Positions 26,831 through 42,395 are shown, counted from the stretch's first letter. The stretch is 64,000 nucleotides of DNA from Patescibacteria group bacterium (GCA_041675145.1 JBAYUK010000002.1:280530-344529), one strand, 5' to 3'. Notes: generated by a model not told the origin, from the sequence alone. A program made the numbers and translations.

Positions 26831-28816
26831 ATGACCCACTTGCAAACAAATATCACACGAGTCGTATTTTTACTCGTGCTCTTGTGTTCTGTAAAGCCAG
26901 CGCACGCGCTCAACTGTAACCTGGACGGAGTAGGGGGGTCTCTCCCTACTGTCTCGGATTCAGAACAGCTACTTTCCTGGATTATGGACAACTCCTGGAC
27001 TCAGTGTCTCTCTGGAAAATGCAACTTTGACCAGAGGGTCGGAGGAGACCTTGCAGACGTAGGGGATGTTTCAAGGCTAGTAGAGATTGCTGCTTCAGGG
27101 TCAGATCCAAATGGTATCTGTATCCAGCCGGTAGTAAACCAACCACCGGTAGTTTCATCTCTTACCTTCAGCCAGAACCTGGTGAACGAAAACGCCAGGA
27201 ACTTTTCAGCACAAGCCTCAGACCCAGAGGGGACCGTGGTGTCCTGCGAGCTAACCTGCTATGCAGGAGCACCCACGTTTACCAACTTGGACTGCGAAAT
27301 TGGAGCAACCTGCACCTATCCAGGTACGGGGAGTTACATTTCAACACTCTCTGCTAAAGACCGAGATGGTGTCGTAAGTTCTGTGGTAACAGCAAGTGTT
27401 ACCTTGTCTCAGTTCACCAACCATCCGCCGACTCTTACCGGTTCAATTTGCACTGCCACTAGTGGTGATGCGGTTTTCCAAACCCAGTGTTATGCGACGG
27501 GGCAAGCAGACTCGGATGGTGACGTAGTTACCTGTACGACATCGTGCGGGAACGGAGATACGCCAACGCAAAACGTTTCTTGCTCACAACCTGTGGCATG
27601 CACCTATCTAGATGCCGGCACCTACACTGTCACTACTACTCCTTACGACAGCCACGGGCAAGTAGGACAAAGTAGAACAACTTCAGTTACCGTAAACTCT
27701 GGGACAAACAACCAGTTTTGCGGTAATAGCACTACAGACTCAGGGGAAACCTGTGACGACGGCAACGCCATCACTGAGTCTTGCACCTATGGCCTGACTT
27801 CATGTTCGGTGTGCAACGCAACCTGCCAACAAGTAGCAGGAAACACCGCGTATTGCAGTAACCACATCGTGGACGCACAAGAACAATGCGATGATGGCAA
27901 CGCACTGAGCAATGACGGGTGTTCTAACACCTGCCAAAACGAGATTCCATCGTATACCACACCGTCCTTTACTTTGAAGTTTGGTGGAGGAATCCTCAAC
28001 AACCCCAGAGACCTGGATATTGATCCGGCAACTGGCAATGTTGCGGTGCCTGACTCAAACAACCACCGTGTTGTGTTCTTTAACCCGAATACCGGCGCGG
28101 TAGTTTCAACACTAGGACCATCTATCCCAGGAACCAACAGCCTTGTGTTTCCAGAATCCATCTGTTTCAGCCCCGTCTCTTCTAGGTTTGCAATTGTAGA
28201 CCAAGGAAACTCACGGGTAGTAGTGATGAGTTCTTCAATACAGCTCTCACATATCGTTGGAAGTTTTGGACAAGGCGATGGCGAATTCGACCAGCCGGAA
28301 GGCTGTGTGTTTGATAGGAACGAGAACTTGTATATTGTGGATGACACAGATAGGGTCGACGAAGTCGTTAATCATAGAGTTGAAAAGTTCAACCCTATCG
28401 GGGTGTACCAAAACTCATGGGGAAGACGCGGAGTCCAGCCTGGAGAGTTTAGGGGTCCAAGAGGTATTGCAGTAGATGCCGAAGGGCTGTTATACGTTAC
28501 GGACTTAGAAAACAACAGGATTCAGAAGTTTACTCAAGATGGCACTTCGGTGCGATTTTGGGATGGAACTTTCTTTCTTCCGGTGAATCAACCAGCCTAT
28601 GTTGCGGTTGATGCGAATGATCGCATTTACGCAGTGGAGTTTGGTTTAAGCCAGATTCGTTCTTGGACGCAGTCAGGAGTTGACGCCCACACGATTGGAT
28701 CCATAGGAGATGGAGATGGTCAGTTCCATGACACAGTTGGAATAGGGGTTACGCCAAATGGAGTAATCTTTACTTCTGACTTCACAAGAGACGACATCCA
28801 AAAATTCAGTCCCTAG
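26831..28816 (+). CDS. Secreted protein with cysteine-rich CxxCxDGN-type repeats and a C-terminal NHL-repeat beta-propeller.
   Basis: Signal peptide. Repeated C..C(D/N)DGN motifs are present. The C-terminal half has NHL-like repeats (NNHRVVFFNP, YVTDLENNRIQKF). Confidence 0.55.
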   Translation: MTHLQTNITRVVFLLVLLCSVKPAHALNCNLDGVGGSLPTVSDSEQLLSWIMDNSWTQCLSGKCNFDQRVGGDLADVGDVSRLVEIAASGSDPNGICIQPVVNQPPVVSSLTFSQNLVNENARNFSAQASDPEGTVVSCELTCYAGAPTFTNLDCEIGATCTYPGTGSYISTLSAKDRDGVVSSVVTASVTLSQFTNHPPTLTGSICTATSGDAVFQTQCYATGQADSDGDVVTCTTSCGNGDTPTQNVSCSQPVACTYLDAGTYTVTTTPYDSHGQVGQSRTTSVTVNSGTNNQFCGNSTTDSGETCDDGNAITESCTYGLTSCSVCNATCQQVAGNTAYCSNHIVDAQEQCDDGNALSNDGCSNTCQNEIPSYTTPSFTLKFGGGILNNPRDLDIDPATGNVAVPDSNNHRVVFFNPNTGAVVSTLGPSIPGTNSLVFPESICFSPVSSRFAIVDQGNSRVVVMSSSIQLSHIVGSFGQGDGEFDQPEGCVFDRNENLYIVDDTDRVDEVVNHRVEKFNPIGVYQNSWGRRGVQPGEFRGPRGIAVDAEGLLYVTDLENNRIQKFTQDGTSVRFWDGTFFLPVNQPAYVAVDANDRIYAVEFGLSQIRSWTQSGVDAHTIGSIGDGDGQFHDTVGIGVTPNGVIFTSDFTRDDIQKFSP

Positions 28817-28839
28817 AAAGGGGAGTAAATAACAAAAAA

Positions 28840-28876
28840 AGAACGGGCGGTCCATTTGGACCGCCCGCTTTTGTTT
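28840..28876. terminator. Bidirectional intrinsic terminator between the convergent NHL-repeat protein and PilX-like genes.
   Basis: ACGGGCGGTCC-ATTT-GGACCGCCCG hairpin flanked by A-run and T-run. Confidence 0.65.
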
Positions 28877-29839
28877 CTATTTCGTAAGTGCGCTTTCACT
28901 ATATATTACGTTGTCGAAGATGCTGATAATGTTTCCAGATGTGCGATCAAGTGTGGCTGTTATTTTCCTCGCAACACCACCGTAGTATCCAACAGACTCA
29001 ATGTTGGTAACAGGGGAGCCGAGAAGATTTGAAGTCGAGCTACTGCTGATATTTAGGTTTATAGACGGTACTGGTAATCCTGGGGTAACGTTCGGTGCTC
29101 CTTGATCTTCGTTTGTGCTTTTTACTACGTTCCAGGGCTTGATGCGAAATATCTTCTTACCCGATCCAACTTGGTTTTGTAGTAGTATTTTTTTTGAGTC
29201 TACCGTTCTAGTAAAGAATCTGCCGAGTGGAGGAGGAATAATACTGCCGTCACTGTTATATCCAATTATCTCAACCCTCATCCCTGTATTTGCAGGAGTA
29301 TTTAGTGAACTCCAATCAAGAGTTACGTCACTAGTCATATTCGGAACCTCAAGTTCATATACCTCATCTTTTTTTACAACTTGATTCGCAATTACTGGTT
29401 GTTTGTACCACATACGTACGCCGTAGTAGCGCGTATTGCTGTTACGGTTATTTGAGCAGGTTGTAGCTGGTATACGCTGACTGTTATCTAGGTTTACGCA
29501 TCGAGGTGTATTGTTTCTGTTTCCAGTGAATTGAGCTGCGGGTACTTCCGGTCCGATAACATTAGTACTATCTGCACTAGTATCTTTGTCGTTCTCATCA
29601 GATATCTCAGTAGGGGAGTTGCTACTAACTGCATCCCGCCATTCTAGTAGTGCATCTTCTAACCCTGCTTCAGCTGCATAGTAGGCTATCATACTGTTAT
29701 CTATACGAGTAGCGTTACGGATTTCATCTACCATCTCACGAGAAAAAGCCGTGACAGACACGAGCATGATAGCTGAGATGATGAGGGTGATAAGGAGTGC
29801 AACACCTCGTTCAGATTGTCTTGATGTTTGTTTTAACAT
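28877..29839 (-). CDS. PilX-like minor pilin/pseudopilin (type IV pilus-associated).
   Basis: The start is chosen at ATG 29839. The N-terminus MLKQTSRQSERGVALLITLIISAIMLVSVTAF...YYAAEAGLE matches the PilX N-terminal domain pattern (RG, a hydrophobic helix, then yyaAEAG). Confidence 0.5.
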   Translation of the reverse strand: MLKQTSRQSERGVALLITLIISAIMLVSVTAFSREMVDEIRNATRIDNSMIAYYAAEAGLEDALLEWRDAVSSNSPTEISDENDKDTSADSTNVIGPEVPAAQFTGNRNNTPRCVNLDNSQRIPATTCSNNRNSNTRYYGVRMWYKQPVIANQVVKKDEVYELEVPNMTSDVTLDWSSLNTPANTGMRVEIIGYNSDGSIIPPPLGRFFTRTVDSKKILLQNQVGSGKKIFRIKPWNVVKSTNEDQGAPNVTPGLPVPSINLNISSSSTSNLLGSPVTNIESVGYYGGVARKITATLDRTSGNIISIFDNVIYSESALTK

Positions 29840-29945
29840 ATTAAGATCATTGTAGCGGTTTGCACACAGAGAGGCAAGCACGCAAAAGAAACAAAAAAAC
29901 AACCCCATGACGATGGAGTTGTTTGAAGAGATTTTTCGTTTGAAA

Positions 29946-30611
29946 TCAGTTGAGAGGTTTGGTGTCGTGGCAGTTGCCACAATACGGCTTGCCCTCTGAA
30001 CTGTGATGGCGAATCTTGAGTTTAGTTTTGCAACCAGTGCATGGTGCGCGTTTTGCTTCATTTCCGTCGTAGCAAGGGCGGCATAGGTCTGCTTTTGTTC
30101 CTGGTCCTTTTTGTGATCTATACATTAGAAACGCAGACTCCTTACAGGAGACACATATGCCGTTGAAAAACTCCTTTTTGTTGACGAGGCATTTTGTGCA
30201 TACCTTCTTCTTCCCTGAATTCGTTTCAACTGTTCTTACCTGTGATATCGTGGAAAAATTTTTACACGAGATACACTGTACCAGGTTGGCTTTAGCGTAG
30301 CAGGTGAAGCAGGTCTTAAGCCTCCGCCCTTCTTTACTGATGCTGTAGCTGCCGACTGGGTTGTTGTTGCAAGCCTGGCAGAGTTGAGAGTAAGAGTGTG
30401 GTTCAGAAGGGAAGTGTTCCAGGCAGTAGAATCGCTTGTTTTTTGCCGAGTAAGAGATTGTTTCGCCGGTAGCAAAGCATCGGGAGCATCGCTTCTCCAC
30501 TTGAAGTAGCGCCATAGGTGGGAACACCTTGCGGCGAGGGTGGACTGGTTCCAAGATGACCACAGTTGGGTCGGTTGGTGGTGGTTCTGATATCCCTGTT
30601 AAAGTGCTCAC
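29946..30611 (-). CDS. Cysteine-rich protein with about ten CxxC pairs (multiple zinc-ribbon repeats), hypothetical.
   Basis: GTG start preceded by AAGGAG with 8-nt spacing. CxxC motifs recur regularly through the protein. Confidence 0.5.
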   Translation of the reverse strand: MSTLTGISEPPPTDPTVVILEPVHPRRKVFPPMALLQVEKRCSRCFATGETISYSAKNKRFYCLEHFPSEPHSYSQLCQACNNNPVGSYSISKEGRRLKTCFTCYAKANLVQCISCKNFSTISQVRTVETNSGKKKVCTKCLVNKKEFFNGICVSCKESAFLMYRSQKGPGTKADLCRPCYDGNEAKRAPCTGCKTKLKIRHHSSEGKPYCGNCHDTKPLN

Positions 30612-30787
30612 TGTTCACGCTCCTTGTGTATTTTTTGGAAAGTTTATTGTAAACCAAAATAATACTTTATTCAATAGTAAATAACTTCTATATAAGCATA
30701 AGTGAGCTGTTTGCTGATATAGGATGTTTGAATAGATGTAAAGTAATTACCTACTTACTAATAACATTTCCACTGGGTAGTTTATTT

Positions 30788-30796
30788 GGTATAATA
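30788..30796 (+). promoter_or_regulatory. Extended -10 promoter (TGGTATAAT) of the Type I R-M operon.
   Basis: It lies in an AT-rich 210-nt intergenic region, 28 nt upstream of the hsdM ATG. Confidence 0.5.
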
Positions 30797-30823
30797 AGCG
30801 TTATAACATCTCATGGATAGTAA

Positions 30824-32374
30824 ATGTTAAAGGTAAAAAAAGAGCAAAAATCTGAACCACTTGAGAAACAGCTTTTTAAAGCGGCGGATAAGCTTCGTAA
30901 GAATATTGATGCAGCAGAGTACAAGAATATTGTGCTTGGTTTGATTTTTTTGAAATATATCTCTGATTCGTTTGAAGAGAAATACAGACAGCTGACACTA
31001 GAAAAAGAACAGGGAACTGGAGCCGATCCAGAAAGTATCGACGAATATCGAGCTGAGAATGTGTTCTTTGTACCAACCGAGGCACGTTGGCAGTATCTCC
31101 ATGGTCGCTCAAAGCTCCCATCTATTGGTGAAGATCTTGATAAGGCCATGGAATCAATCGAGAAAATCAACCCAACGCTCAAAGGTATCTTGCCAAAGGT
31201 ATTTGCTCGCCCAAATCTGGACAAAGCAGCGCTTGGCGGACTGATTGACCTCGTGAGCGATATCGCGCTCGGTGACGAGGAAGCCAAATCAAAAGATATT
31301 CTTGGTCGAGTCTATGAATATTTTCTTGGTGAGTTTGCCAATGCCGAAGGAAAAAAGGGAGGGCAGTTTTATACCCCAAAATCGATCGTGAAGCTGATGG
31401 TTGAAATGATTGAACCATACAAGGGCCGCATCTATGACCCGTGTTGTGGTAGTGGCGGCATGTTTATTATGTCGGAAAAATTTGTGCAGTCTCATGCAGG
31501 CCGTATTGATGACCTTGCTATCTATGGGCAGGAGAGTAATCAAACGACCTATCGTCTCGCTCGAATGAACCTAGCGATTCGCGGCATTGATGGATCGGGT
31601 GTGAAATGGAACACCGAAGGATCGTTTCTCAAGGACGAGCACAAAGATCTCAAAGCAGATTTTATTCTCGCCAACCCACCGTTTAACGTTTCCGATTGGA
31701 GCGGGGAGTTGCTACAAACTGATCCACGTTGGCAATATGGCAAACCACCAGCAGGCAATGCGAACTTTGCTTGGTTACAACATATGGTCTATCATCTCTC
31801 GCCAAATGGTATTATGGCCTGCGTGTTGGCCAATGGTTCTCTTTCATCACAATCGAGCGGGGAAGGAGAAATCAGAAAGGCACTTGTCGACGCTGATCTA
31901 GTAGATTGTATCGTCGTGCTGCCAAAGCAACTTTTTTATAACACAGGTATCCCGGCGTGTATCTGGTTTCTGTCTCGCAAACGAATTGGTAACGGTGACC
32001 GTAAGCGTACAGGTGAGATACTATTTATCGACGCGTCCGACACTGGCTATATGGCAGACCGCACTCATCGTGAGTTCACCGACGAAGATGTCACCATGAT
32101 TGCCGACACCTATCATGAATGGCGCAAAGTTGGCGGTAAATACGAAGACCAAAAGGGTTTCTCAAAATCCGCAACACTCGCTGATATCAAAAAACACAAC
32201 TATGTCCTCATCCCTGGTAGCTATGTCGGCATCAAAGCCGCCGAGGACGACGGAATATCGTTTGAAGAAAAGATGAAAAAGTTGACAGGAGAGCTGAAGG
32301 AACAGATAAAAGAGGAAGAGAGGTTAAATGAGGAGATTAAGAAGCAGCTGAATAAAATTGGAATTAAATTATAG
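30824..32374 (+). CDS. hsdM: Type I restriction-modification system methyltransferase subunit HsdM (N6-adenine).
   Basis: HsdM N-terminal domain, SAM motif ([10 protein letters not shown]), catalytic NPPF (ANPPFN), and a C-terminal coiled coil. Confidence 0.9.
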
Positions 32375-32376
32375 AT

Positions 32377-33009
32377 ATGGGTTTAATCTTTACACCTCCT
32401 AAGTACCAAGCTAGTTCGTTTAATTGTCCTCACTGTAGGGCGTTTTCTCAGATGATTTGGAGTAACACCCATTATAATAGTGGAAGGTATACGGTTGATA
32501 ACCTTGAAATCTCTCACTGCTTTCACTGTAAAGACTTTTCTTTATGGCTAAATGCGAAAATGATTTACCCAGCAAAAATACTTGTAGATTCCCCAAACTC
32601 TGATTTGCCAGAAGATATAAAGAAAGACTACCTAGAAGCAGCTAGTATTTTAAGTGAGTCATCGCGTGGTTCATCTGCGTTGCTCCGTATTGCTATTGAG
32701 AAGCTGGTAAATTATCTTGGGGCATTAGGAAGTAATCTTAATGCTAAGATTGGGTTCTTGGTTTCTGATAGAAATCTTAATCCAAAGATTCAAAAATCTT
32801 TAGATGTAGTGCGGGTGATTGGAAATAATGCGGTTCATCCCGGATTGATTGATTTAACTGACGATCGCTCTACGGCAGAATTGCTTTTTAAGTTAGTAAA
32901 TATTATAGCAAAAGAAATGATAACTGAACCAAATGAAGTTGACTCAATATATAGTGAACTAGTACCAGAAAAAAATAAAATTGCGATCAAGAAGCGAGAC
33001 ACAAAATAA
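32377..33009 (+). CDS. DUF4145-like protein with an N-terminal CxxC...CxxC zinc ribbon, embedded in the R-M operon.
   Basis: Conserved block KIQKSLDVVRVIGNNAVHPG, an R..GN..H signature as in DUF4145. It starts 3 nt after the hsdM stop. Confidence 0.5.
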   Translation: MGLIFTPPKYQASSFNCPHCRAFSQMIWSNTHYNSGRYTVDNLEISHCFHCKDFSLWLNAKMIYPAKILVDSPNSDLPEDIKKDYLEAASILSESSRGSSALLRIAIEKLVNYLGALGSNLNAKIGFLVSDRNLNPKIQKSLDVVRVIGNNAVHPGLIDLTDDRSTAELLFKLVNIIAKEMITEPNEVDSIYSELVPEKNKIAIKKRDTK

Positions 33010-33013
33010 CTAT

Positions 33014-33586
33014 ATGAATAGAAAAGAAGTTATAAATAAGATTGAAGAATTCCGTCAAACTTGTAAAGAATACAGCAAGCTTCTTTTGGATTCTCGCGAT
33101 AGTGTTGTGCCTGAGATCGTTCGTAATCATGATTCAATTGATGAGGCAAAGGCAGATTTGAGCAGATCCTTTGCTTTTTTGGAAGAATATATTATTAAGT
33201 TTGGTAATAACCCTAGAATGAGTGACGGTGTTTGGAATGTCACATACTCTCCTTATAGTAACGCATTTAGCACTGATACACTTGTTCGTGTTGCCCCATC
33301 ATTAGACAGAGTTGTTGACGATCTTAATATTGTCTTGGGTAGAATCGAAGCTACTACTGACAGTGAATTCGCAGAGAAGATGAACCCTTTACCACAAAAT
33401 AGCAGTGGAGAGAGCGACAGTAAGGAAGTAACAATCAATGATATAGAAAAACCTCATAAAGAGTACTGGAATATGGTCTTCGCATCACTTATGGGCTGGG
33501 CGAGGTCACATGTTTCTACGGTGATCGCAGGTGTTATAATTACACTAATTGCTGGCTTCTTACTTTTTAAACTTGGCTGGAACTAA
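33014..33586 (+). CDS. Hypothetical protein with a C-terminal transmembrane anchor, embedded in the R-M operon.
   Basis: The start is chosen at ATG 33014, 5 nt after the upstream stop. The body is acidic and helical, and the C-terminus has a TM helix (VSTVIAGVIITLIAGFLLF). Confidence 0.45.
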   Translation: MNRKEVINKIEEFRQTCKEYSKLLLDSRDSVVPEIVRNHDSIDEAKADLSRSFAFLEEYIIKFGNNPRMSDGVWNVTYSPYSNAFSTDTLVRVAPSLDRVVDDLNIVLGRIEATTDSEFAEKMNPLPQNSSGESDSKEVTINDIEKPHKEYWNMVFASLMGWARSHVSTVIAGVIITLIAGFLLFKLGWN

Positions 33587-33587
33587 A

Positions 33588-34733
33588 ATGACGTTCACAT
33601 CTTCGAAAAATTGGAAGACAGTAGACTTGTCAGAATTGGCAGCTTTTTCGAATGGGAAAAGTTCCCCAGATAGGCTTGAGAGCGGACAGTATCCAGTTTA
33701 CGGAGCTAATGGAATTATTGGTTTTACTGATATAAAGAATTCTGATAAAGAATCAATTATTATCGGTAGAGTCGGATCGTATTGTGGAAGTCTATATTTC
33801 TCAGAAAATGAGTCATGGGTTACTGATAATGCTATTATCTGTAAAGCAAAAGATAATTCTGATCCAAAATTTATTTTTTATTTACTAAATACATTAGGCT
33901 TAAACTCTCGTGCAGCAGGATCTGGTCAACCACTAATAAACCAGTCAATTTTAGGGTCTATAGAAGTCATTATCCCACAAAAGAAGGAGGAGCAAAAAGA
34001 AGTTGCGGCGGTGTTAGGGTGTTTGGATGACAAGATTGAGCTGTTGCGGCGAGAGAATAAAACGCTCGCAAGCATCGCGCAAGCGATATTTAAAGAATGG
34101 TTTGTAGATTTCCGATTTCCTGGGCACGAAAAGGTAAAGATGATTGATGGACTGCCTGAGGAGTGGAAGGTTGGTAAGTTAGGGGAGTTTTGCAATATCT
34201 CAATTGGACGAACTCCACCACGAAAAGAAGAAGAATGGTTTTCGAAATATCCAAGTGATGTAAAATGGATTTCTATTAAAGACATGGGAACAAGCGGGGC
34301 TTATATTTTTAATACTTCAGAATATTTAACCCAAGAAGCAGTGGATAATTTTAATATTCCTGTGATTCCAGAAAATACTGTGATTATTAGTTTCAAGATG
34401 ACGCTTGGACGTGTTGCAATTACAACCGAAGAAATGCTTTCAAATGAAGCGATTGCACACCTAAAACCAAAAGATAATCTTTCGCCAGAATTTCTGTATC
34501 TAACCATGAAGAATTTTGATTTTAATTCTATGGGTAGTACTTCATCTATTGCAAGTGCTGTAAATTCACAATCGATCAAGGATATGGAAATTGTAGCTGG
34601 AGGTGATCATATAATGAAATTATTTAGCCAAATTACTAGCCCTATTTTTGAGAGATTAAAAAACGGAGCAAAAGAAATCCAAACCCTGTCCAGGTTGAGG
34701 GATGATTTGTTGAATAAGATTTTTAATGTATGA
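33588..34733 (+). CDS. hsdS: Type I R-M specificity subunit HsdS (two target-recognition domains).
   Basis: Start is at ATG 33588, 1 nt after the upstream stop. A central conserved coiled-coil region (EVAAVLGCLDDKIELLRRENKTLASIAQAIFKEWF) and a matching C-terminal repeat are present. Confidence 0.85.
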   Translation: MTFTSSKNWKTVDLSELAAFSNGKSSPDRLESGQYPVYGANGIIGFTDIKNSDKESIIIGRVGSYCGSLYFSENESWVTDNAIICKAKDNSDPKFIFYLLNTLGLNSRAAGSGQPLINQSILGSIEVIIPQKKEEQKEVAAVLGCLDDKIELLRRENKTLASIAQAIFKEWFVDFRFPGHEKVKMIDGLPEEWKVGKLGEFCNISIGRTPPRKEEEWFSKYPSDVKWISIKDMGTSGAYIFNTSEYLTQEAVDNFNIPVIPENTVIISFKMTLGRVAITTEEMLSNEAIAHLKPKDNLSPEFLYLTMKNFDFNSMGSTSSIASAVNSQSIKDMEIVAGGDHIMKLFSQITSPIFERLKNGAKEIQTLSRLRDDLLNKIFNV

Positions 34734-36232
34734 GAAATATTCTGGACTTTACGAATGTGGAGGCAAGAAGCTTTCTTCTCAAGGGAGATAGTTATGTTAA
34801 CTTTGATCTCCCAAAGTATTTTACATTCGATGATTTAATCAAAAAAATATCAAATAAGATTGATAATAAAGAGTTATCAGATTTTTATGCAACTACTAAG
34901 CCTAATCATCCAAAGACTTTTGATGAAGTTAATTATGTTTTGCTAAATAATAAAGATGGTAGGTATGCATGGAGGCCATTTGAAATAATCCATCCGACAA
35001 TATATGTCTACTTAGTTCATCGGATTACAGAGATAAATAATTGGCAAACTATATTGAATAGATTTAGATGCTTCAAAGAACATACGGTAATATCTTGCAT
35101 GAGTCTACCTATTGAATCAGAAAATAGCGACAGTGATAAGGCTAGCCAAGTTATTAATTGGTGGAATGAAGTCGAACAGCGGTCTCTTGAATGTGCCCTG
35201 GAATATGAGTATGTATATCATACTGATATTAGCGACTGCTATCCTTCGATATATACTCATTCGGTTGTCTGGGCTTTACATACAAAAGAAGTAGCTAAAA
35301 GAGAAATAAGAAACAATAGTTTATTAGGGAATATTATTGATGGATGTCTTCAATCAATGTCTTACGGTCAAACAAATGGGATACCTCAGGGTAGCGTTCT
35401 GATGGATCTTTTGGCGGAACTTGTACTTGGGTATGTAGATGAACTAGTAACAGAAAGAATGAGTCAGATTGATGTTTGTGAATATAAGATAATTAGGTAT
35501 AGAGATGATTATCGTGTCTTTGTGAATAGTCCAGAAATAGCGGAAAGAATATTAAAAATACTTACAGAGGTTCTTATTGGCCTGGGTCTAAAGTTAAATA
35601 GTAGTAAAACGGTATTATCGGTAAATGCCATAGAGTCATCCATCAAACCAGATAAGTCACATTGGATTCAGTATGGTAGTGAATTAGGGTCATTATTGGT
35701 TTTTGTCAAGCGATTACATAGCTTTTCAGGTCAATTTCCTAATTCTGGCACATTAGTTAAAATGCTCCAAAGGTTTTATAAAAAGATCGAGAACTTAGAT
35801 TCTTTAGATGACTATATTAATCCTGTAGTTATGATTAGCTATTTAGCCGATATTGCCTATAGGAATCCCAGAACTTATCCAATAGCAATAGCAGTTATTA
35901 GTAAGTTGATTCTATTTATTAAGCAAGAAGATCGCCAGGCTCTTATTGATAAAATAAGGAAGAAATTTTCTAGAATTCCCAATACAGGCCACTTAGACTT
36001 ATGGCTTCAAAGAATGACTATTAAGATTTATCCAGGTATACTATATCCAGAAAAGTTATGTAGAAGAGTCTTTGATTCAAATATTAAGATTTGGAATAGT
36101 GATTGGCTTTGTAAAGATATGCAAGATTTAATACAATCTACACCTTTAGTTGATTTCGGAGTAATCAACTCTTTTGGAGACTTTATTTCTTCACAAGAGG
36201 TAGCATTATTTAGGCAGCTACAGGACTCGTAA
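34730..36232 (+). CDS. Stand-alone reverse transcriptase (Abi/UG-like defence RT candidate), translationally coupled to hsdS.
   Basis: ATGA start/stop overlap with hsdS. RT motif 1 is RPFEIIHPTIYVY. Motif A is YHTDISDCYPSI. Motif B' is NGIPQGSVLMDLLAELVL. Motif C is IRYRDDYRVF, with YRDD at nt 35498-35509. Motif D/E is GLGLKLNSSKTVL. A ~200-aa alpha-helical C-terminal region follows. No endonuclease or maturase domain is present. Confidence 0.8.
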   Translation: MRNILDFTNVEARSFLLKGDSYVNFDLPKYFTFDDLIKKISNKIDNKELSDFYATTKPNHPKTFDEVNYVLLNNKDGRYAWRPFEIIHPTIYVYLVHRITEINNWQTILNRFRCFKEHTVISCMSLPIESENSDSDKASQVINWWNEVEQRSLECALEYEYVYHTDISDCYPSIYTHSVVWALHTKEVAKREIRNNSLLGNIIDGCLQSMSYGQTNGIPQGSVLMDLLAELVLGYVDELVTERMSQIDVCEYKIIRYRDDYRVFVNSPEIAERILKILTEVLIGLGLKLNSSKTVLSVNAIESSIKPDKSHWIQYGSELGSLLVFVKRLHSFSGQFPNSGTLVKMLQRFYKKIENLDSLDDYINPVVMISYLADIAYRNPRTYPIAIAVISKLILFIKQEDRQALIDKIRKKFSRIPNTGHLDLWLQRMTIKIYPGILYPEKLCRRVFDSNIKIWNSDWLCKDMQDLIQSTPLVDFGVINSFGDFISSQEVALFRQLQDS

Positions 36233-36235
36233 TTT

Positions 36236-39200
36236 ATGAAAATTATAAATGAATCCACAATTGAACAACTTACAATCGATCTTCTTCGCGAAGCGGGGTT
36301 TTTGTATAAAAGCTCTGAGGAATTAGAACTTCAGAGACCAGATTTATCGCAGGTTGTTTTGCGAGTATGGCTTATTGCGGCTATTAAGAGGCTCAATTCT
36401 GGTTTGCCAGTTGAGGCACATAATTTTGTAATAAATCAGATCACTAATACAGTGAGTCTAACTGACAAAGTAGTCGAGAATAATAGAGCAGTACATCGAC
36501 TGCTTGTCGAAGGTGTGCCAGTAGAGATATCGGAAGACGGGCATATGCGCGGATATAACGTGCGAGTCATCGATTGGGATGACATGTCTAAAAATGAGTT
36601 TGTAGTAACGAATCAATTTTATATAAAGGGTCTGGAGCGAGATAAGATCCCCGATATTGTATTGTTTGTAAACGGATTGCCTTTGGTGGTGATAGAGCTC
36701 AAGGATGCGAAGAACGAAGACGCGACGGTACATAAGGCGTTTACTCAACTGACGAACTATCAGAAAGCTATTCCTGATTTGTTTGCCTATAATGGTATAC
36801 TCGTTGTCTCTGATGGTCTCGATGCTCGAGCGGGTACGATCACGAGCGGTTTTGATCGTTTCCTGGCATGGAAATCAGTAGATGGAACGAAGGATGCGCA
36901 GCGGACAACACCAGAGATTGAGACTTTGGTGCTTGGCATGTTGCGACCCGAAGTATTGCTGGATCTGATCCGAAACTTTACTGTGTATGAAGAGGAAAAA
37001 AAGACGTTGGATGACGGATCTTTGGAAATTCGCACGATTAAGAAAACGGCGGCGTATCATCAATATTTTGCAGTACAAAAGGCGATTGATTCAACCATTC
37101 ACGCGACTGAGTCTGATCACAGAGCTGGTGTGGTGTGGCACACGCAGGGATCAGGGAAATCGCTTTCGATGGTCTTTTACGCTGGGAAGATTATCCAGAG
37201 ATTGGGAAATCCGACTATTGTGGTGCTGACTGATCGCAATGACCTGGATCAGCAGTTATTTGATACTTTTGCGGGAGCCAAGGATTTGTTGCGCCAAGAC
37301 CCGGTGCAGGCAGAAGACCGCGCTCATTTGAAAAAGTTACTCGCAACCAGTGGTGGCGGGGTGATATTTACTACGATTCAAAAATTCTCACTCGAAGAAG
37401 GTGAGAAGGAATACCCGATGTTGTCTGACAGATCAAATATTATCGTCATGGCCGATGAGGCGCACCGATCGCAGTATGGATTTGATGCAAAGGTGCGGGA
37501 GGTGCGTGGTGTGGATGGGATTACGAATGGGGCGATCGTTTCGTATGGATTTGCCAAATATGTCCGGGACGCATTGCCAAATGCTTCTTTCCTTGGATTT
37601 ACCGGGACGCCGATCGAAAAGGGTGATGCGAATACTAGGGCGGTCTTTGGTGACTATGTTGACGTGTATGATATTCAAGCGGCGGTAGAAGACGGTGCGA
37701 CTGTGCCGATTAGCTACGAGTCGCGACTGGTAAAGCTCGAATTTAACGATACCGAAAAAGCTGAACTCGACCGAGCAGTAGATGAAGTGCTGGAAAGTGA
37801 AGAAACAAGTGTAACGGAAAAAGCAAAGGCTAAGTGGGCGCAGCTCGAGGCCGTGGTTGGGCATAGGGCGAGACTACGCGACATTGCAAAGGACCTGGTA
37901 ACGCACTTTGAAGTCCGCCAAGAAGCATTTGATGGAAAGGCGATGATTGTCGTGATGAGCCGTCGTATCGCTGTTGAGCTCTATGATGAGATTATTAAAC
38001 TACGACCACAGTGGCATGATGATAGTAAGAAAGGTGGTGTGATTAAGGTTGTGATGACAGCTGCCTCATCTGACCCGGTGGGCTTTCAGCCTCATCATAC
38101 AACTAAGGATGATCGCAAAGAGTTGGCGCTACGATTTAAAGATACGAAAGACTCCTTGAAGCTGGTGATTGTGCGGGATATGTGGCTGACAGGTTTTGAT
38201 GTGCCGTGTTTGCATACAATGTACATTGATAAGCCGATGCGGGGTGCAAATCTGATGCAGGCGATTGCCCGCGTCAATCGGGTCTATAAAGATAAGCCAG
38301 GCGGATTGATCGTTGATTATATTAGTATTGCTTCGGACCTTAAAGAAGCATTGGCTGTCTATACGGAGAGTGGCGGAAAGGGAGGTGTGATTGCCGATCA
38401 AGCAGTAGATACACTGCCACATATGTTGGCAAAATTTGAAATAGTACAAGGGATTTTGGATGGAGTGAACTATGATAAATACTTTAAAGATGATGCAAGA
38501 GGAAAACTAGAAGCGATCTTAGAAGTAGAAGATTTCTTACTTGGAAACGAAGAACGCAAAGAACGGTTTTTGAAAGAAGTAGTGGCGCTGTCAAAGCTCT
38601 TTGCCCTGGCAATGCCAAACTTGCGAGCTATTGAGATCCGTGATGAGGTGGCATTTTTCCAAGCAGTAAAGGCGCGGATTATGAAGCTCGCGAGCGACGG
38701 CGGCGGTCGCGATATAGATATTGAGACGACTATTCGACAGTTAGTTGATAAGGCGGTCGTCTCACAAGGCATTATCGATATCTTTGATGCAGCTGGGATT
38801 AAGAAGCCAGATATTTCAATTTTGTCTGACGAGTTCCTGGAAGAAATTCGAACCATGGAGCGACAGAATATTGCACTCGAATTGCTGAAAAAAATCCTCA
38901 ACGATGAATTGCGTTCACGAGGCAAGAAAAATGCAGCGCAAATGAAGAAGTTTTCAGAGATGTTGCACAATGCGATCAAGAAATATCAGAATAATCTACT
39001 GACTGCTGCGCAGGTGATTGATGAATTGATCAAGCTGGCGAAAGACGTGAAGGAGGCCGACAAGCGGGGTGAGACACTAGGGCTGACTGAAGACGAAATT
39101 GCATTTTATGATGCTCTATCGCAAAACGAAAGTGCGGAAAAAGTGCTAGGTGACGACAAGCTCAAGGAGTTGGCACGAATTCTGGTAGGAAGGGTGCGTG

Positions 39201-39367
39201 AAAACGCCACGATCGACTGGAGTTTGCGAGAGACTTCACGAGCACGCATGCGAGTGATGGTGAGACGATTACTGAATCAATATGGCTACCCGCCAGATTT
39301 TCAAGAGATCGCCACCGAAACGGTGTTGGAGCAAGCGGAGTTGTTTGCGAAGGAAGAGATAAGATAG
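36236..39367 (+). CDS. hsdR: Type I restriction enzyme endonuclease/translocase subunit HsdR.
   Basis: PD-(D/E)xK nuclease motif ([18 protein letters not shown]), SF2 helicase motifs ([15 protein letters not shown]), and a C-terminal helical domain. It starts 3 nt after the RT stop. Confidence 0.9.
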
Positions 39368-39415
39368 CTACTTTTAAATAGAGCCGTATGGCTATATTTT
39401 TGTTATAATACACTT

Positions 39416-39688
39416 ATGCTAGAGCAAAAAGAAATGTATGTCGATCAGTACCTAAGGGAGAACGGCAGGCTGCTTGAGGAGCGGCCCGCCACTGGTCAGG
39501 CGTTTGAGCTTAATGGAGCTTATTATTGGACCTGCTATTTGCTGACGGTAAAGATACCGCAAGGTGAGCATAAGAAGAGAATATTTCTTCATATTGGTGC
39601 ATTCTTGCCATTTGATTGGCGCCCAGTTGATGAGTACGATGTTCCTGGCTTGATAGATTTCTTAAACATGTATTACCGTAAGAGCTAG
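39416..39688 (+). CDS. Hypothetical 90-aa protein (possible antitoxin partner of the downstream zeta-like kinase).
   Basis: Its own TTGTTATAAT promoter is at 39398-39407. No recognisable motifs. Confidence 0.35.
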   Translation: MLEQKEMYVDQYLRENGRLLEERPATGQAFELNGAYYWTCYLLTVKIPQGEHKKRIFLHIGAFLPFDWRPVDEYDVPGLIDFLNMYYRKS

Positions 39689-39690
39689 CT

Positions 39691-39750
39691 ATGCCAAAAT
39701 ACTACAACTCACAACGGAAAAAAAAGAGCTGTATCAGCCTGCAGAGATAA
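39691..39750 (+). pseudogene. Degenerate duplicate of the 5' end of the Cas4-like nuclease gene (19-codon remnant MPKYYNSQRKKKSCISLQR*).
   Basis: 39691-39745 aligns with 40709-40762: ATG(C/T)CAAAATACTACA...CACAACG...CTGTAT. The reading frame is disrupted at an A8 run. Confidence 0.5.
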
Positions 39751-39768
39751 CTTCTCGACAGGCTCGAA

Positions 39769-40485
39769 GTGACCCATAACTCAACCATGACAGACGAACA
39801 AATACAAAAAAATGCGGACCAATATTTAAAAGATCACAAGGCAGATATCCTAGAGATGTTTGCGAGTCCAGAACACTATTTTCCGACTGAAACACCGGTT
39901 ACTATCTTTATGGCTGGTTCTCCTGGAGCAGGTAAGACTGAAGTCGCTAGCGCTTTGTTTGATGAGTTGAGGAGCATGAAGAGTCCTCCTGTTAGAATAG
40001 ATGCAGATATGATTAGGTCTATGCTGCCCGGGTATGTAGGCGGGAACGCTCATGTATTCCAAAAAACAGCTAGTACGGGAGTGCATATATTGTTTGACTA
40101 TGCGTTAAAGCATAACCTGAACGTTATCCTCGATGGTACTTTTTCACATAGTAGTGCATCGCAAAACATCGAAAGGTCTTTGAAGCGAGGTAGGACGGTT
40201 ATTATTTATTTTGTATACCAGGATCCTCTTATTGCCTGGCGTTTTACACAGGCGCGCGAAGCTATCGAAGGGAGACGGGTAACAAAGGAGACGTTTATCA
40301 ATGCATTTTTAAAGTCGCGGGATAATGTTCGACTAGTTAAGGAACAATTTGGCTCAGAGATTAGGCTCGACGTTATACTAAAAGACTTCACGCACGACAT
40401 CGGACAGGTATTTACTGATGTAGCTGAAATTGACCAGTTCCTCCCAAAGGCATATACTAAAGAAGAACTAGAGACTCTTATATGA
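39769..40485 (+). CDS. Zeta-toxin-like P-loop kinase (AAA/zeta_toxin family).
   Basis: Walker A MAGSPGAGKT, then RIDADMIRS, which corresponds to the zeta IDGD catalytic Asp region, then NVILDGTF. Confidence 0.55.
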   Translation: MTHNSTMTDEQIQKNADQYLKDHKADILEMFASPEHYFPTETPVTIFMAGSPGAGKTEVASALFDELRSMKSPPVRIDADMIRSMLPGYVGGNAHVFQKTASTGVHILFDYALKHNLNVILDGTFSHSSASQNIERSLKRGRTVIIYFVYQDPLIAWRFTQAREAIEGRRVTKETFINAFLKSRDNVRLVKEQFGSEIRLDVILKDFTHDIGQVFTDVAEIDQFLPKAYTKEELETLI

Positions 40486-40682
40486 TGAAAATACAAGCAA
40501 TAAAACATATAGTACAAAAGGCTAAGAAAGATACAAAGCAGGAGTTCTCTGACTTCTTTCGTAATGCACCAAAAGAAGAGCAAATAGCGCTCCTTAAACG
40601 AGTAGCTCAGAAAGCAAATAAAGAACAAAAAGCAGTAGTAGATAAATATAAAAAAACATTAGCTAGAAAAATCGCTCGTTAA
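40482..40682 (+). CDS. Small Lys-rich basic protein (66 aa), hypothetical, overlapping the zeta-like gene by ATGA.
   Basis: 4-nt overlap with the upstream gene. A terminator hairpin overlaps its stop codon. Confidence 0.4.
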   Translation: MMKIQAIKHIVQKAKKDTKQEFSDFFRNAPKEEQIALLKRVAQKANKEQKAVVDKYKKTLARKIAR

Positions 40683-40696
40683 GAGCGGTTTTTTGG
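40669..40696 (+). terminator. Small intrinsic terminator (CGCTC-GTTAA-GAGCG followed by TTTTTT) after the zeta-like cassette.
   Basis: A 5-bp GC-rich stem plus T6. It overlaps the next gene's TGGTATAAT promoter (40694-40702). Confidence 0.4.
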
Positions 40697-40708
40697 TATA
40701 ATACATTC

Positions 40709-41509
40709 ATGTCAAAATACTACACAGCACAACGAGATAAAGGACTGTATGAACCAGGGGGTACCAAGCCCTTTAAGTTGTCGCGCTCAAAGATTGACCT
40801 TTTTATTTCATGTCCTCGGTGCTTCTATTTAGATCGCAGGCTCGGAGTTGGGCGCCCTCCAGGGTTTCCGTTTGCCTTGAACTCCGCTGTGGATACTCTT
40901 TTAAAACAGGAGTTTGATACCCACCGCGTGGCAGGTACTCGCCACCCTCTCATAGAACAGTACGGCGTTAATGCTCGGCCTGTTGCTCATGAGAACCTCG
41001 AACAATGGAGACATAACTTCACGGGAGTGCAGTACTTGCACGAGAAAACAAACTTCCAAGTATTTGGAGCAATCGACGACCTTTGGATAAATGAGGCAGG
41101 GGAATATATTGTGGTGGACTACAAGGCTACCGCGAAAGAAGAGGCCATCACTACTCTCGACAAAGACTGGCATGATGGATACAAGCGTCAGATGGAGATA
41201 TACCAGTGGTTATTGCGCCACAACGGGCATAAGGTATCAGATACGGGGTATTTCGTATACTGTAATGGTCGAGCAGATCGTGCTGCCTTTGATAAAAAGC
41301 TCGAATTTGATGTCACCCTTATCCCGTACAAGGGATCAGATGAGTGGGTAGAGGGTAAAATCAATGAGGCGTATGGGTGTCTCAACTCAGATGAGGTGCC
41401 AGTTTCATACCCTGAGTGTGACTACTGCTCATATATTAAGGCTGTGGAGTCTCACGAAGGTGCAAAAGGAGCTTCAGCTAGTAAGAAAGCACAGGGGAAG
41501 CTCTTCTAG
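40709..41509 (+). CDS. PD-(D/E)xK nuclease, Cas4/RecB-like family, with four Cys (possible Fe-S cluster). Stand-alone, with no CRISPR nearby.
   Basis: Motifs IDDLWINEAGEYIVVDYKAT (D...E.K with the DYK signature), N-terminal CPRC and C-terminal CDYC. Confidence 0.5.
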   Translation: MSKYYTAQRDKGLYEPGGTKPFKLSRSKIDLFISCPRCFYLDRRLGVGRPPGFPFALNSAVDTLLKQEFDTHRVAGTRHPLIEQYGVNARPVAHENLEQWRHNFTGVQYLHEKTNFQVFGAIDDLWINEAGEYIVVDYKATAKEEAITTLDKDWHDGYKRQMEIYQWLLRHNGHKVSDTGYFVYCNGRADRAAFDKKLEFDVTLIPYKGSDEWVEGKINEAYGCLNSDEVPVSYPECDYCSYIKAVESHEGAKGASASKKAQGKLF

Positions 41510-41587
41510 GTTGAAATTTGTTGACGAGAGTAAGATTTGGTATAATAGATACATAACGGAGGGCGGTATATCACTAGCCCTTTTTGT

Positions 41588-42319
41588 ATGTCTCAAAGAC
41601 ATTTGCCTCCTGTGAGTCTGTTCATTGCTATTATGATGCTAATTGCCATCCTAATCCCGGTAGCAGCCTTTGCGGCAGACCTATCCGGACCTTTAGAAAC
41701 GCATGTTGGTAGTGACCTGGATACGCCAGTAGATGAGATAGTCTTAGTGCCACAGGTACCAAAGGTTTTTACTACTACCTGTACGCAAATAACTAATGTA
41801 AATCCCGACTATATCCCGTATGCCCAGGCAGCAGCAGCCAAGTGGCTCGGAGGGGATACCAATATCTTGTACGCCCTAATCCAAGTAGAATCGAAATGGG
41901 ATGCGAGTGCAAAGAACAGGGTGTCTTCAGCTTCAGGTCTTGGCCAGTTTATTACCGGTACTGCTCGTGGATATACTGAGCTTACTGGTGGGTCAGATGT
42001 GATGCGTCGTGGCAAGAAGATCTCGGCTGCTCCCGAGCGTATCTGGGAACCCGCAACTGTCTTTGATGATCCTAAGAGCCACTTCCCAGAAGATGCCCGG
42101 TTCAACCCTGAACGAGCAATCTTCGCAGTAGCACATAAGATGTCTGGAGCACTCTCAGGTGGCCGTTCACTCCTTGATGCGTATGCAGTTAGCTACCATG
42201 GCTTTAACGCTAATGACGAACGAGGGAGAAGTATTGCATATGGAGCAGGGAATAAGTTTGTTTCTGTATACAAACAACTAGAAAAAAATGGCGGATGCCA
42301 GATTATAGAGAAGAAATAG
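41588..42319 (+). CDS. Membrane-anchored lytic transglycosylase (SLT domain).
   Basis: N-terminal TM. SLT catalytic block ALIQVESKWDASAKNRVSSASGLGQF (E-S...A.S..G.GL.Q). Promoter TTGACG plus TGGTATAAT at 41521-41547. Confidence 0.6.
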   Translation: MSQRHLPPVSLFIAIMMLIAILIPVAAFAADLSGPLETHVGSDLDTPVDEIVLVPQVPKVFTTTCTQITNVNPDYIPYAQAAAAKWLGGDTNILYALIQVESKWDASAKNRVSSASGLGQFITGTARGYTELTGGSDVMRRGKKISAAPERIWEPATVFDDPKSHFPEDARFNPERAIFAVAHKMSGALSGGRSLLDAYAVSYHGFNANDERGRSIAYGAGNKFVSVYKQLEKNGGCQIIEKK

Positions 42320-42326
42320 GGAAGTA

Positions 42327-42360
42327 CAAAAAAGAGGAGCCGAATGGCTCCTCTTTTTAT
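42327..42360. terminator. Bidirectional intrinsic terminator between the SLT gene and convergent PBP1A.
   Basis: AGAGGAGCC-GAAT-GGCTCCTCT hairpin flanked by A6 and T5. Confidence 0.7.
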
Positions 42361-42395
42361 GTCTCTCGTATCTTTCTCTATATCTCTACAACTCT

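Follow-up and report, generated by a model that had tools for sequence, protein, structure and literature searches.

A Type I restriction-modification operon carrying candidate defence genes at both internal junctions in a Patescibacteria genome

Nested genes in Type I systems and the architecture of the present operon

Type I restriction-modification (R-M), BREX, DISARM and Hma systems often hold embedded genes, of which 96.7% run in the same direction as the system around them and many are known or new defence systems; most systems, however, were reported to be embedded only on rare occasions (Payne et al. 2024, 10.1101/2024.01.29.577857). Some cases have been studied individually. In EcoprrI, PrrC is located at the hsdS|hsdR junction and stays silent until Stp of phage T4 inhibits the enzyme, and PARIS is known to sense anti-restriction proteins (PMC12707154). 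DarTG2 of enteropathogenic Escherichia coli (EPEC) occupies the hsdS|hsdR junction, which was called a likely hotspot (PMC12255303), and TgvAB of Vibrio cholerae VPI-2 is embedded in a Type I cluster at a similar position (PMC11411939). Here we describe a six-gene Type I R-M operon from the metagenome-assembled genome of an uncultured Patescibacteria group bacterium (GCA_041675145.1), found within 64,000 nt of contig JBAYUK010000002.1 (280530-344529). This whole stretch is called the window, and coordinates are counted from its first letter. The genes follow the order hsdM, a RAZR/PD-T7-4 homologue with a DUF4145 domain, a tail-anchored transmembrane protein (TMp), hsdS, an Abi-P2-type reverse transcriptase (RT)-like polymerase and hsdR (Table 1). 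This six-gene architecture belongs to the already documented pattern of defence genes nested in Type I operons.

As in the embedded systems of Payne et al., DarTG2 and TgvAB, co-oriented defence genes stand among the hsd genes, also at the hsdS|hsdR junction; the operon differs in that both internal junctions are filled, with three different single-gene units. Those of the published systems that were tested acted independently. With EcoprrI (hsdM-hsdS-prrC-hsdR) it has in common an abortive-infection effector between hsdS and hsdR. However, in EcoprrI a Type IC enzyme guards the effector, an ABC-ATPase/HEPN anticodon nuclease, while the effector in the window is an RT-like polymerase, and physical latency on the R-M complex has been demonstrated for PrrC, whereas for Abi-P2 of the window the likeness is one of slot position and co-occurrence. 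In domain and PADLOC scans no accessory gene of the window matched AAA_13 or the PrrC model, that is, no PrrC/RloC homology was detected. All three accessory genes lie on the same strand between system genes and are neither mobility nor housekeeping genes, which makes them embedded genes in the sense of Payne et al. 2024. The searchable text of the literature held no statement on Abi-P2 or PD-T7-4 within a Type I R-M system, although figures or tables could still hold one, and neither the embedding of Abi-P2 directly after hsdS at a high rate nor the TMp family was found stated there.

In our view the operon is likely a Type I R-M system which doubles as a nested defence island, transcribed together and acting in independent layers. 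The six genes would be mostly co-transcribed from an extended -10 promoter ahead of hsdM, the R-M enzyme would cut unmodified incoming DNA, and three abortive-type effectors would act as independent second layers against phages escaping restriction. The hsdM|hsdS junction would supply RAZR (zinc ribbon and HEPN-like RNase) and TMp, and the hsdS|hsdR junction the Abi-P2-type enzyme, with co-oriented and presumably translationally coupled cargo at both junctions. Two of the three accessory genes, RAZR/PD-T7-4 and Abi-P2, represent known stand-alone systems which give protection without R-M genes. A defence role is plausible for all three.

A preliminary description of this DNA had listed six same-strand genes in the order given above, and open reading frame (ORF) calls together with domain matches bear this out. 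The tight coupling of the cluster is also confirmed: the computed intergenic distances from hsdM to hsdR are 2, 4, 1, -4 and 3 nt. Of the gaps first reported (3, 5, 1, -4 and 3 nt) the last three are right and the first two are each too large by one. The calls of the six genes are identical in two public assemblies, a 300-kb ENA contig and a Logan contig, and the opposite-strand ORFs within 30824-39367 are all short and fully overlapped by the six plus-strand genes. Spacing is compact across the whole operon and no frameshifts were seen. Shine-Dalgarno sequences ahead of the internal genes are weak or absent, which fits termination-reinitiation coupling. The Rfam scan of positions 28000-43000 gave no match, and the repeat search detected neither flanking direct repeats nor att-like sites around the operon.

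Table 1. Coordinates of the operon genes, candidate transcription signals and neighbouring features in the window
Feature	Position	Strand	Description
hsdM (516 aa)	30824-32374	+	Type I methyltransferase subunit
RAZR/PD-T7-4 (DUF4145) homologue (210 aa)	32377-33009	+	N-terminal Cys4 zinc ribbon and DUF4145 HEPN-like RNase domain
TMp (190 aa)	33014-33586	+	tail-anchored protein, family uncharacterised
hsdS (381 aa)	33588-34733	+	specificity subunit, two target-recognition domains
Abi-P2-type RT-like polymerase (500 aa)	34730-36232	+	start overlaps hsdS stop by 4 nt (ATGA)
hsdR (1043 aa)	36236-39367	+	restriction/translocase subunit
Candidate operon promoter	30767-30795	+	TTTCCA, 17 nt, TATAAT, TG extension; TGGTATAAT at 30787-30795
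Internal exact extended -10 match TGTTATAAT	33532-33540	+	inside TMp gene, 47 nt upstream of hsdS ATG
Weak hairpin, then T-run	39376-39399	+	after hsdR; -8.2 kcal/mol, z = -0.74, no better than shuffles
Exact TGCTATAAT	32902-32910	-	within RAZR gene
221-aa protein	29946-30611	-	many CxxC pairs; divergent, just upstream of hsd promoter region
Genes downstream of hsdR	39416-41509		90-aa ORF (orf90, no family match), zeta-toxin family kinase (E 6e-38), 66-aa ORF (orf66), PD-(D/E)XK Cas4-like nuclease
19-nt promoter-like motif TTTGGTATAATACATNCAT	39399-39417, 40692-40710, 41536-41554		three copies
First 11 codons of PD-(D/E)XK gene	40709-40741		
33-nt copy of these codons	39691-39723		79% identical; after orf90, before zeta-toxin gene
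Putative inserted module	~39724-40690		zeta-toxin and orf66

The R-M core has every component expected from its sequence. HsdM contains HsdM_N and N6_Mtase (E 2e-110), matches PADLOC MTase_I (E 1e-206) and shows the DPCCGSGG and NPPF motifs in its translation. HsdS has Methylase_S in two stretches and matches Specificity_I over residues 8-379 (E 1e-92). The domains of HsdR are HSDR_N, SWI2_SNF2/ResIII, T1R_D3-like and T1RH-like_C; it matches TIGR00348 above the cutoff of that model (E 3e-187) and PADLOC REase_I with 1183 bits, it carries the nuclease motif D-x13-ELK and the motor motifs GSGKS (Walker A) and DEAH, and its nearest solved relative is HsdR of EcoR124 (E 1e-35). All three genes are full length and every motif checked is present, so that by sequence criteria these are the HsdM, HsdS and HsdR of a Type I R-M system, with predicted enzymatic activity. 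The PADLOC annotation that the preliminary description had suggested as a check returned MTase_I, PD-T7-4, Specificity_I, AbiP2 and REase_I, with TMp left without a match.

The accessory genes and their homologues

PD-T7-4 has been renamed RAZR, a protein with a Cys4 zinc ribbon and a HEPN-like DUF4145 RNase domain. It becomes active when it assembles as a 24-mer that encircles ring-shaped proteins of the phage (the portal or a putative recombinase), it cleaves single-stranded RNA nonspecifically and aborts infection, its catalytic residues in E. coli are R146 and H154, and RAZR alone on a low-copy plasmid protected E. coli (PMC13017515). The homologue in the window matches the PADLOC PD-T7-4 model over its full length (E 7.5e-76), as well as Pfam DUF4145, and aligns with RAZR of E. 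coli UMB1727 (PDB 9Y9C) over 203 residues (E 1e-46). The two proteins are similar in length and have the Cys4 ribbon, the DUF4145 domain and the R...H pair in common: CPHC and CFHC of the window protein align to CPHC and CSHC of the 9Y9C chain, forming the ribbon, and RVIGNNAVH (R-x7-H) aligns to RIVGNQAVH, which holds the catalytic R...H of the E. coli enzyme. They differ in that identity is moderate, the host is a member of Patescibacteria and the gene lies within an hsd operon.

The genomic context of RAZR is variable. Its homologues were located on plasmids outside hsd operons in four of the four contexts inspected, and RAZR was not seen inside the hsd operon in any other TMp operon or RT locus examined. 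We considered RAZR as a conserved partner of the operon and rejected this, since the closest hsdM relative (83% identity) has RhuM in its place and the plasmid homologues lie outside hsd. From these comparisons RAZR appears as a swappable, independent cargo of the operon. In one Flavobacteriales locus (L089, 7876-10509) a DUF4145 ORF (E 1e-8 to RAZR of the window) is found about 500 nt upstream of a non-hsd Abi-P2 gene, and this is the only other locus with the DUF4145 and Abi-P2 families as neighbours.

Abi-P2 is a trimeric, protein-primed, template-independent DNA polymerase (PMC9508834), which is known from P2 prophages and blocks phage T5 (PMC8632793); a survey of UG/Abi proteins handles it as a stand-alone defence protein (PMC9226505). 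The RT of the window matches PADLOC AbiP2 over residues 1-497 (E 2.9e-191), with UG14 as the next model at only 4e-54, and PDB 7R08, Abi-P2 of P2-like E. coli prophages, over residues 1-494 (E 6.8e-95); RVT_1 was also matched. The alignment with 7R08 is full length, taking in the RT-like palm and fingers and the family-specific C-terminal helical domain that takes the place of the thumb. Both proteins have YRDD, which stands within RYRDDYR in the window RT and is invariant among 22 relatives. No partner non-coding RNA was detected for this RT by Rfam in 28000-43000, nor is there intergenic room for one. The two proteins differ in location: E. coli Abi-P2 lies in the prophage hypervariable region, whereas Abi-P2 of the window and of about half of its well-flanked close relatives lies directly after hsdS.

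How often is Abi-P2 linked to hsd genes? Relatives of the RT were collected by a degenerate-pattern scan with one genome per GTDB species. The scan gave 579 confirmed sequences, of which the best 80 were analysed, and because these are the relatives nearest to the window RT, the embedding percentages describe this subfamily, not all Abi-P2. The hsd genes at these loci were identified by iterated HsdM, HsdS and HsdR hidden Markov models built from the window and first-round hits. Upstream sequence of 1.5 kb or more was available for 64 loci, and 26 of these have a co-directional hsdS ahead of the RT, in 19 within 60 nt and in many with the same 4-nt overlap as in the window. Where the sequence extends 5 kb or more to either side, half of the loci (17/34) have the RT in an hsd operon of the form hsdM...hsdS-RT...hsdR. 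The hosts belong to Desulfobacterota, Zixibacteria, Spirochaetota, Bacillota, Verrucomicrobiota, Saccharibacteria and Peribacteria, and one is a Methanophagales metagenome-assembled genome (MAG). In that archaeal MAG (L079, JAPWVK010000217.1, 5961-10518) the arrangement is hsdM-hsdS-Abi-P2. A 2021 review found no RT-containing Abi system in Archaea (PMC8632793), and the locus could either result from wrong binning or be truly archaeal.

On a neighbour-joining tree RTs from within hsd operons make up most of the diverse clades, the RTs of one large Bacteroidota/cyanobacterial clade lie outside such operons, and the window RT falls among embedded and Candidate Phyla Radiation (CPR) sequences on long branches. 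RT distances correlate weakly with those of HsdS (rho 0.29, Mantel p 0.006) and HsdR (rho 0.25, p 0.04), and the Mantel test showed no correlation with HsdM distances. The HsdR partners belong to several families, with E values to HsdR of the window from 0 to 1e-28. A single ancestral capture of the RT followed by strict co-inheritance with hsd was rejected on these grounds (Mantel rho 0.11-0.29, several HsdR families). The association of the RT with hsd appears persistent, not exclusive, and hsdS and the RT are probably moving together. About 16 of 20 complete Abi-P2-containing hsd operons carry additional cargo, including RhuM, Fic, GmrSD, SIR2 with HerA, Schlafen/AlbA_2, YhcG, SduA_C and Bro-N, so an hsd operon with half of its genes accessory is not exceptional. 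The preliminary description had started from the premise that the accessory genes make this Type I system unusual. This premise fails, because embedding is published for the Payne et al. systems, PrrC, TgvAB and DarTG2 and because further cargo is so common in the operons with the RT.

In TMp a helical, cytoplasmic N-domain of about 125 aa is joined through a linker to the membrane helix at the C-terminal end (~147-186, with the hydrophobic segment at residues 165-190), and the protein terminates in KLGWN. Its AlphaFold2 (AF2) model has a pLDDT of 92 with an alignment of 108 sequences. No match was obtained in Pfam, NCBIfam, PADLOC v2 or PHROGs, and the profile search of PDB sequences gave nothing credible. 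A word-indexed search detected 8 homologues, and an exhaustive profile search detected 122 cluster representatives, 70 of them at E <1e-10. TMp of the window keeps all residues invariant in the family. The C-terminal partner of the N-domain is a hydrophobic segment or membrane helix in 59 of 108 family members, a CAP12/Pycsar-type TIR in 7, Hypoth_Ymh in 6, TIR_2 in 3, a DpnII-MboI-type restriction endonuclease in 3, and CBS and a RhuM-like C-terminus in 1 each. One Hypoth_Ymh member, P0005, shows the HEPN-type R-x6-H in its sequence. The PADLOC models PDC-S35, PDC-S66, ThsB and Aga_Helical-REase match the effector C-terminal parts of the fusions and never the N-domain. The neighbours of one TIR fusion are two R-M systems and a Shedu nuclease gene, in a defence island that has no Type I system. 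Abortive-infection proteins usually show such a combination of one N-module with exchangeable membrane, TIR, nuclease and Hypoth_Ymh parts, from which we infer that TMp is a defence protein of the sensor-plus-membrane-effector type, in which the N-domain would be the sensor or adaptor and the helix the effector. Such modularity makes the N-domain a candidate for a new module of defence.

Nine distinct, diverged operons (the window, L003, L004-6, L007, L009, L010, L101, L102 and L104) have a member of the close TMp subfamily (42-54% identity) between hsdM and hsdS. In all seven operons with a visible downstream gene TMp is located 1-5 nt upstream of hsdS; in the remaining two it follows hsdM and then the contig ends. 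Exceptions within the subfamily are P0005, the Hypoth_Ymh fusion, which stands beside ribosomal-protein genes outside any hsd operon, and L103, a RhuM-like fusion on a short contig where no hsd gene was detected. Relative to the window, identity in these operons ranges from 83% to 48% for HsdM and from 61% to 31% for HsdR, and TMp diverges faster than HsdM (54% against 83%, 44% against 78%).

The genes on both sides of the TMp-hsdS pair are different from operon to operon. Upstream of TMp we found RAZR (window), RhuM/PDC-S05, Bro-N/PDC-S13 (twice), a 198-aa protein of no assigned family, or nothing. The hsdS-hsdR slot holds Abi-P2 (window), an AbiJ_NTD4-like/PDC-S32 protein with an AAA_15 ATPase, AriAB-like ATPases (twice), a PtuA-like ATPase with a Toprim-like tail, and 438-aa and 269-aa proteins of no assigned family. 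The ABC-type ATPases of this slot (L009, 3339-4922; L010, 2612-4093; L101, 1887-3821) include two with the fused AriAB (PARIS) model as best match and a third with PtuA, and the C-terminal part of the latter matches the Toprim region of retron RT-Toprim models. By this comparison TMp appears stably co-inherited with hsdM and hsdS while both adjacent positions turn over. More distant homologues are found elsewhere. In L091 and L092 (7001-10249) and L093 (7001-9819) a TMp homologue (~25% identity), MazG and a RibD-like deaminase/reductase follow one another in conserved order by the SecY-ribosomal protein operon, a context which does not look like defence; another distant homologue of the membrane type lies in a GmrSD/NERD/DUF3800 island.

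The base composition of the operon is mosaic. The G+C content at third codon positions (GC3) is 0.45 in hsdM and 0.46 in hsdR, as against 0.30 in RAZR, 0.33 in TMp, 0.30 in hsdS and 0.27 in the RT, the overall GC of the window being 0.43. Within hsdS, GC3 is low in the target-recognition domains and host-like (0.47) in the central conserved region only. Such a mosaic would be expected, though it is no proof, if the central block had been replaced through recombination between the conserved hsdM and hsdR genes. The GC3 values and the comparative data suggest that an AT-rich block (RAZR, TMp, the target-recognition domains of hsdS and the RT) may have been exchanged between these two genes; exchanged as a unit, it would swap specificity and cargo together.

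Transcription signals and neighbouring genes

The candidate operon promoter ends 28 nt ahead of the hsdM ATG, and its TGGTATAAT site is the best sigma-70-like match in 30000-41700 (10/12, with the TG extension). The coordinates first given for it, 30788-30796, were one base off. The extended -10 consensus TGNTATAAT (TGnTATAAT) occurs in 10 copies in the window, against 3.4 expected, and none of 100 shuffles reached 10. Most copies are intergenic and correctly oriented ahead of a gene or transfer RNA. Being enriched and mostly oriented before genes, TGNTATAAT is probably a real promoter signal in this genome.

The preliminary description had reported a single recognisable promoter. The site near hsdM stands as the best match, and it is not the only one, as a second exact TGNTATAAT match lies inside the TMp gene. 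This internal TGTTATAAT encodes Gly-Val-Ile-Ile of the TMp membrane helix and is missing from five related operons, and for these reasons it may be fortuitous; it could serve as an internal promoter or simply follow from the codons. We considered two transcription units divided by this site and kept them only as a caveat, since it is not conserved in relatives. Terminator-like hits inside the operon number 11, against 8.4 expected from shuffles, which is chance level. Internal promoters or terminators separating the accessory genes had been named beforehand as evidence that would speak against the six-gene operon; what was found is the one unconserved -10 match, and no terminators beyond chance.

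The weak hairpin reported after hsdR was recovered, with the values in Table 1, and is not among the hits of the terminator scan. The TGTTATAAT of the next gene starts at 39401, just past it. Because the downstream genes each carry their own TGnTATAAT, the operon most likely ends at hsdR. The exact TGCTATAAT on the minus strand within the RAZR gene is an antisense promoter or a chance match.

Downstream of hsdR, orf66 overlaps the stop of the zeta-toxin gene by 4 nt, and the genes there could make up a toxin-antitoxin module plus one more gene of defence or repair. The Peribacteria locus L074 has a homologue of the PD-(D/E)XK nuclease (E 4e-102) 3 kb downstream of its hsdR. The 33-nt copy of the first codons of the nuclease gene forms a 17-codon remnant ORF (MPKYYNSQRKKKS...), which suggests that the zeta-toxin and orf66 module was inserted at the 5′ end of this gene. 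The TATAAT of two of the TTTGGTATAATACATNCAT copies ends 6 nt before an ATG, of orf90 and of the PD-(D/E)XK gene respectively; leaderless or near-leaderless mRNAs are therefore implied.

Independent layers or one integrated machine

The description of the operon as an elaborated R-M-plus-effector module can be retained in part. Defence roles are plausible, and one integrated module is not established because the trio is not co-conserved: no other examined locus combines RAZR, TMp and Abi-P2. The comparative genomics proposed at the outset gave a different answer for each gene, with RAZR behaving as independent cargo, TMp co-conserved with hsdM and hsdS, and the RT recurrently linked to hsdS.

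Several observations weigh against independent, co-transcribed layers, which we nevertheless prefer. The high frequency of Abi-P2 directly after hsdS argues against full independence of the cargo, and the fixed hsdS-adjacent place of TMp, kept while identity falls to 48% in HsdM and 31% in HsdR, argues that some of the cargo is not functionally independent. The exact internal extended -10 could drive hsdS, the RT and hsdR separately. For TMp, a fold search with the model returned generic helical bundles only, so its sensor role is one that we infer from domain architecture alone. Distant TMp homologues (21-25% identity) adjoin MazG and RibD-like genes beside the ribosomal operon in two genomes, so the wider family is heterogeneous and not exclusively linked to defence.

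If part of the cargo is tied to hsdS, then we can ask whether it guards the enzyme. By the logic of PrrC, Abi-P2 and/or TMp would be coupled to the Type I enzyme, physically or in function, would keep silent as long as it is intact and would fire when an anti-restriction protein of a phage disables it, and the operon would be one integrated R-M-plus-effector machine, as the preliminary description proposed. Abi-P2 occupies the same hsdS|hsdR slot as PrrC. The counts of hsdS upstream of the RT and of RTs within hsd operons, the spread of embedded RTs over most diverse clades and the weak yet significant correlation of RT distances with those of HsdS and HsdR all favour such coupling, as do the constant position of TMp in its nine operons and the presence in three of them of ABC-type ATPases in the slot, two AriAB-like (PARIS) and one PtuA-like. 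Nevertheless, we consider it unlikely. In E. coli, Abi-P2 encoded by a P2 prophage gives protection outside any hsd context (PMC8632793, PMC9226505), the large Bacteroidota/cyanobacterial clade of close relatives is not embedded, and HsdM distances are uncorrelated with those of the RT. The RT lies beside several distinct HsdR families, and a shared insertion hotspot fits equally well. Moreover, the accessory genes are without PrrC homology, fusions of the TMp N-domain are also found apart from Type I systems, and the frequencies, taken from the closest RT relatives, hold for the subfamily only.

Some Type I enzymes are reported to be membrane-associated, and TMp might, instead of being a defence effector, serve the Type I enzyme as an accessory subunit particular to this lineage, for example as a tether or assembly factor that brings the methyltransferase/specificity complex to the membrane at the site of DNA entry. 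Its place between hsdM and hsdS, strictly kept in nine operons while the flanking cargo varies, and its predicted tail-anchor topology with a cytoplasmic N-domain would agree with this. It is nonetheless improbable, as elsewhere the N-domain is fused to TIR, Hypoth_Ymh, DpnII-MboI-type nuclease and RhuM-like parts, which are effectors and not tethers, one TIR fusion stands alone in a defence island of non-Type-I kind, and evolution faster than that of HsdM is more typical of an arms-race protein. We find it very hard to believe that the accessory genes are passengers without current function, recent insertions or decaying cargo which is merely read through. The low GC3 of the central block does suggest recent acquisition, and the turnover of cargo among related operons is high; yet each of the three ORFs has the full length of its family model or homologues, the catalytic motifs are kept (the CxxC pairs and R-x7-H of RAZR, YRDD of the RT), the family-invariant residues of TMp are all retained, and the spacing is compact with no frameshifts. 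An R-M system with independent, nested defence layers remains the reading we prefer.

As it stands, the architecture adds a Patescibacteria genome to the cases in which a Type I R-M operon harbours nested defence genes. TMp, a compact protein with a predicted fold of high confidence, no library match and an N-domain recombined with immune effectors, is a good candidate for a single-gene defence system. We also put forward, as a tentative idea with the odds against it, that the TMp N-domain is an undescribed immune sensor or adaptor module with varied effectors, and that the hsd-embedded TMp subfamily and the hsdS-coupled Abi-P2 clade are guardians of the Type I enzyme. If the guardian part were true, inactivation of this enzyme by anti-restriction proteins would be a testable trigger for Abi-P2. 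The papers surveyed handle Abi-P2 as stand-alone, and its linkage with hsdS across many phyla suggests concrete work on what triggers it.

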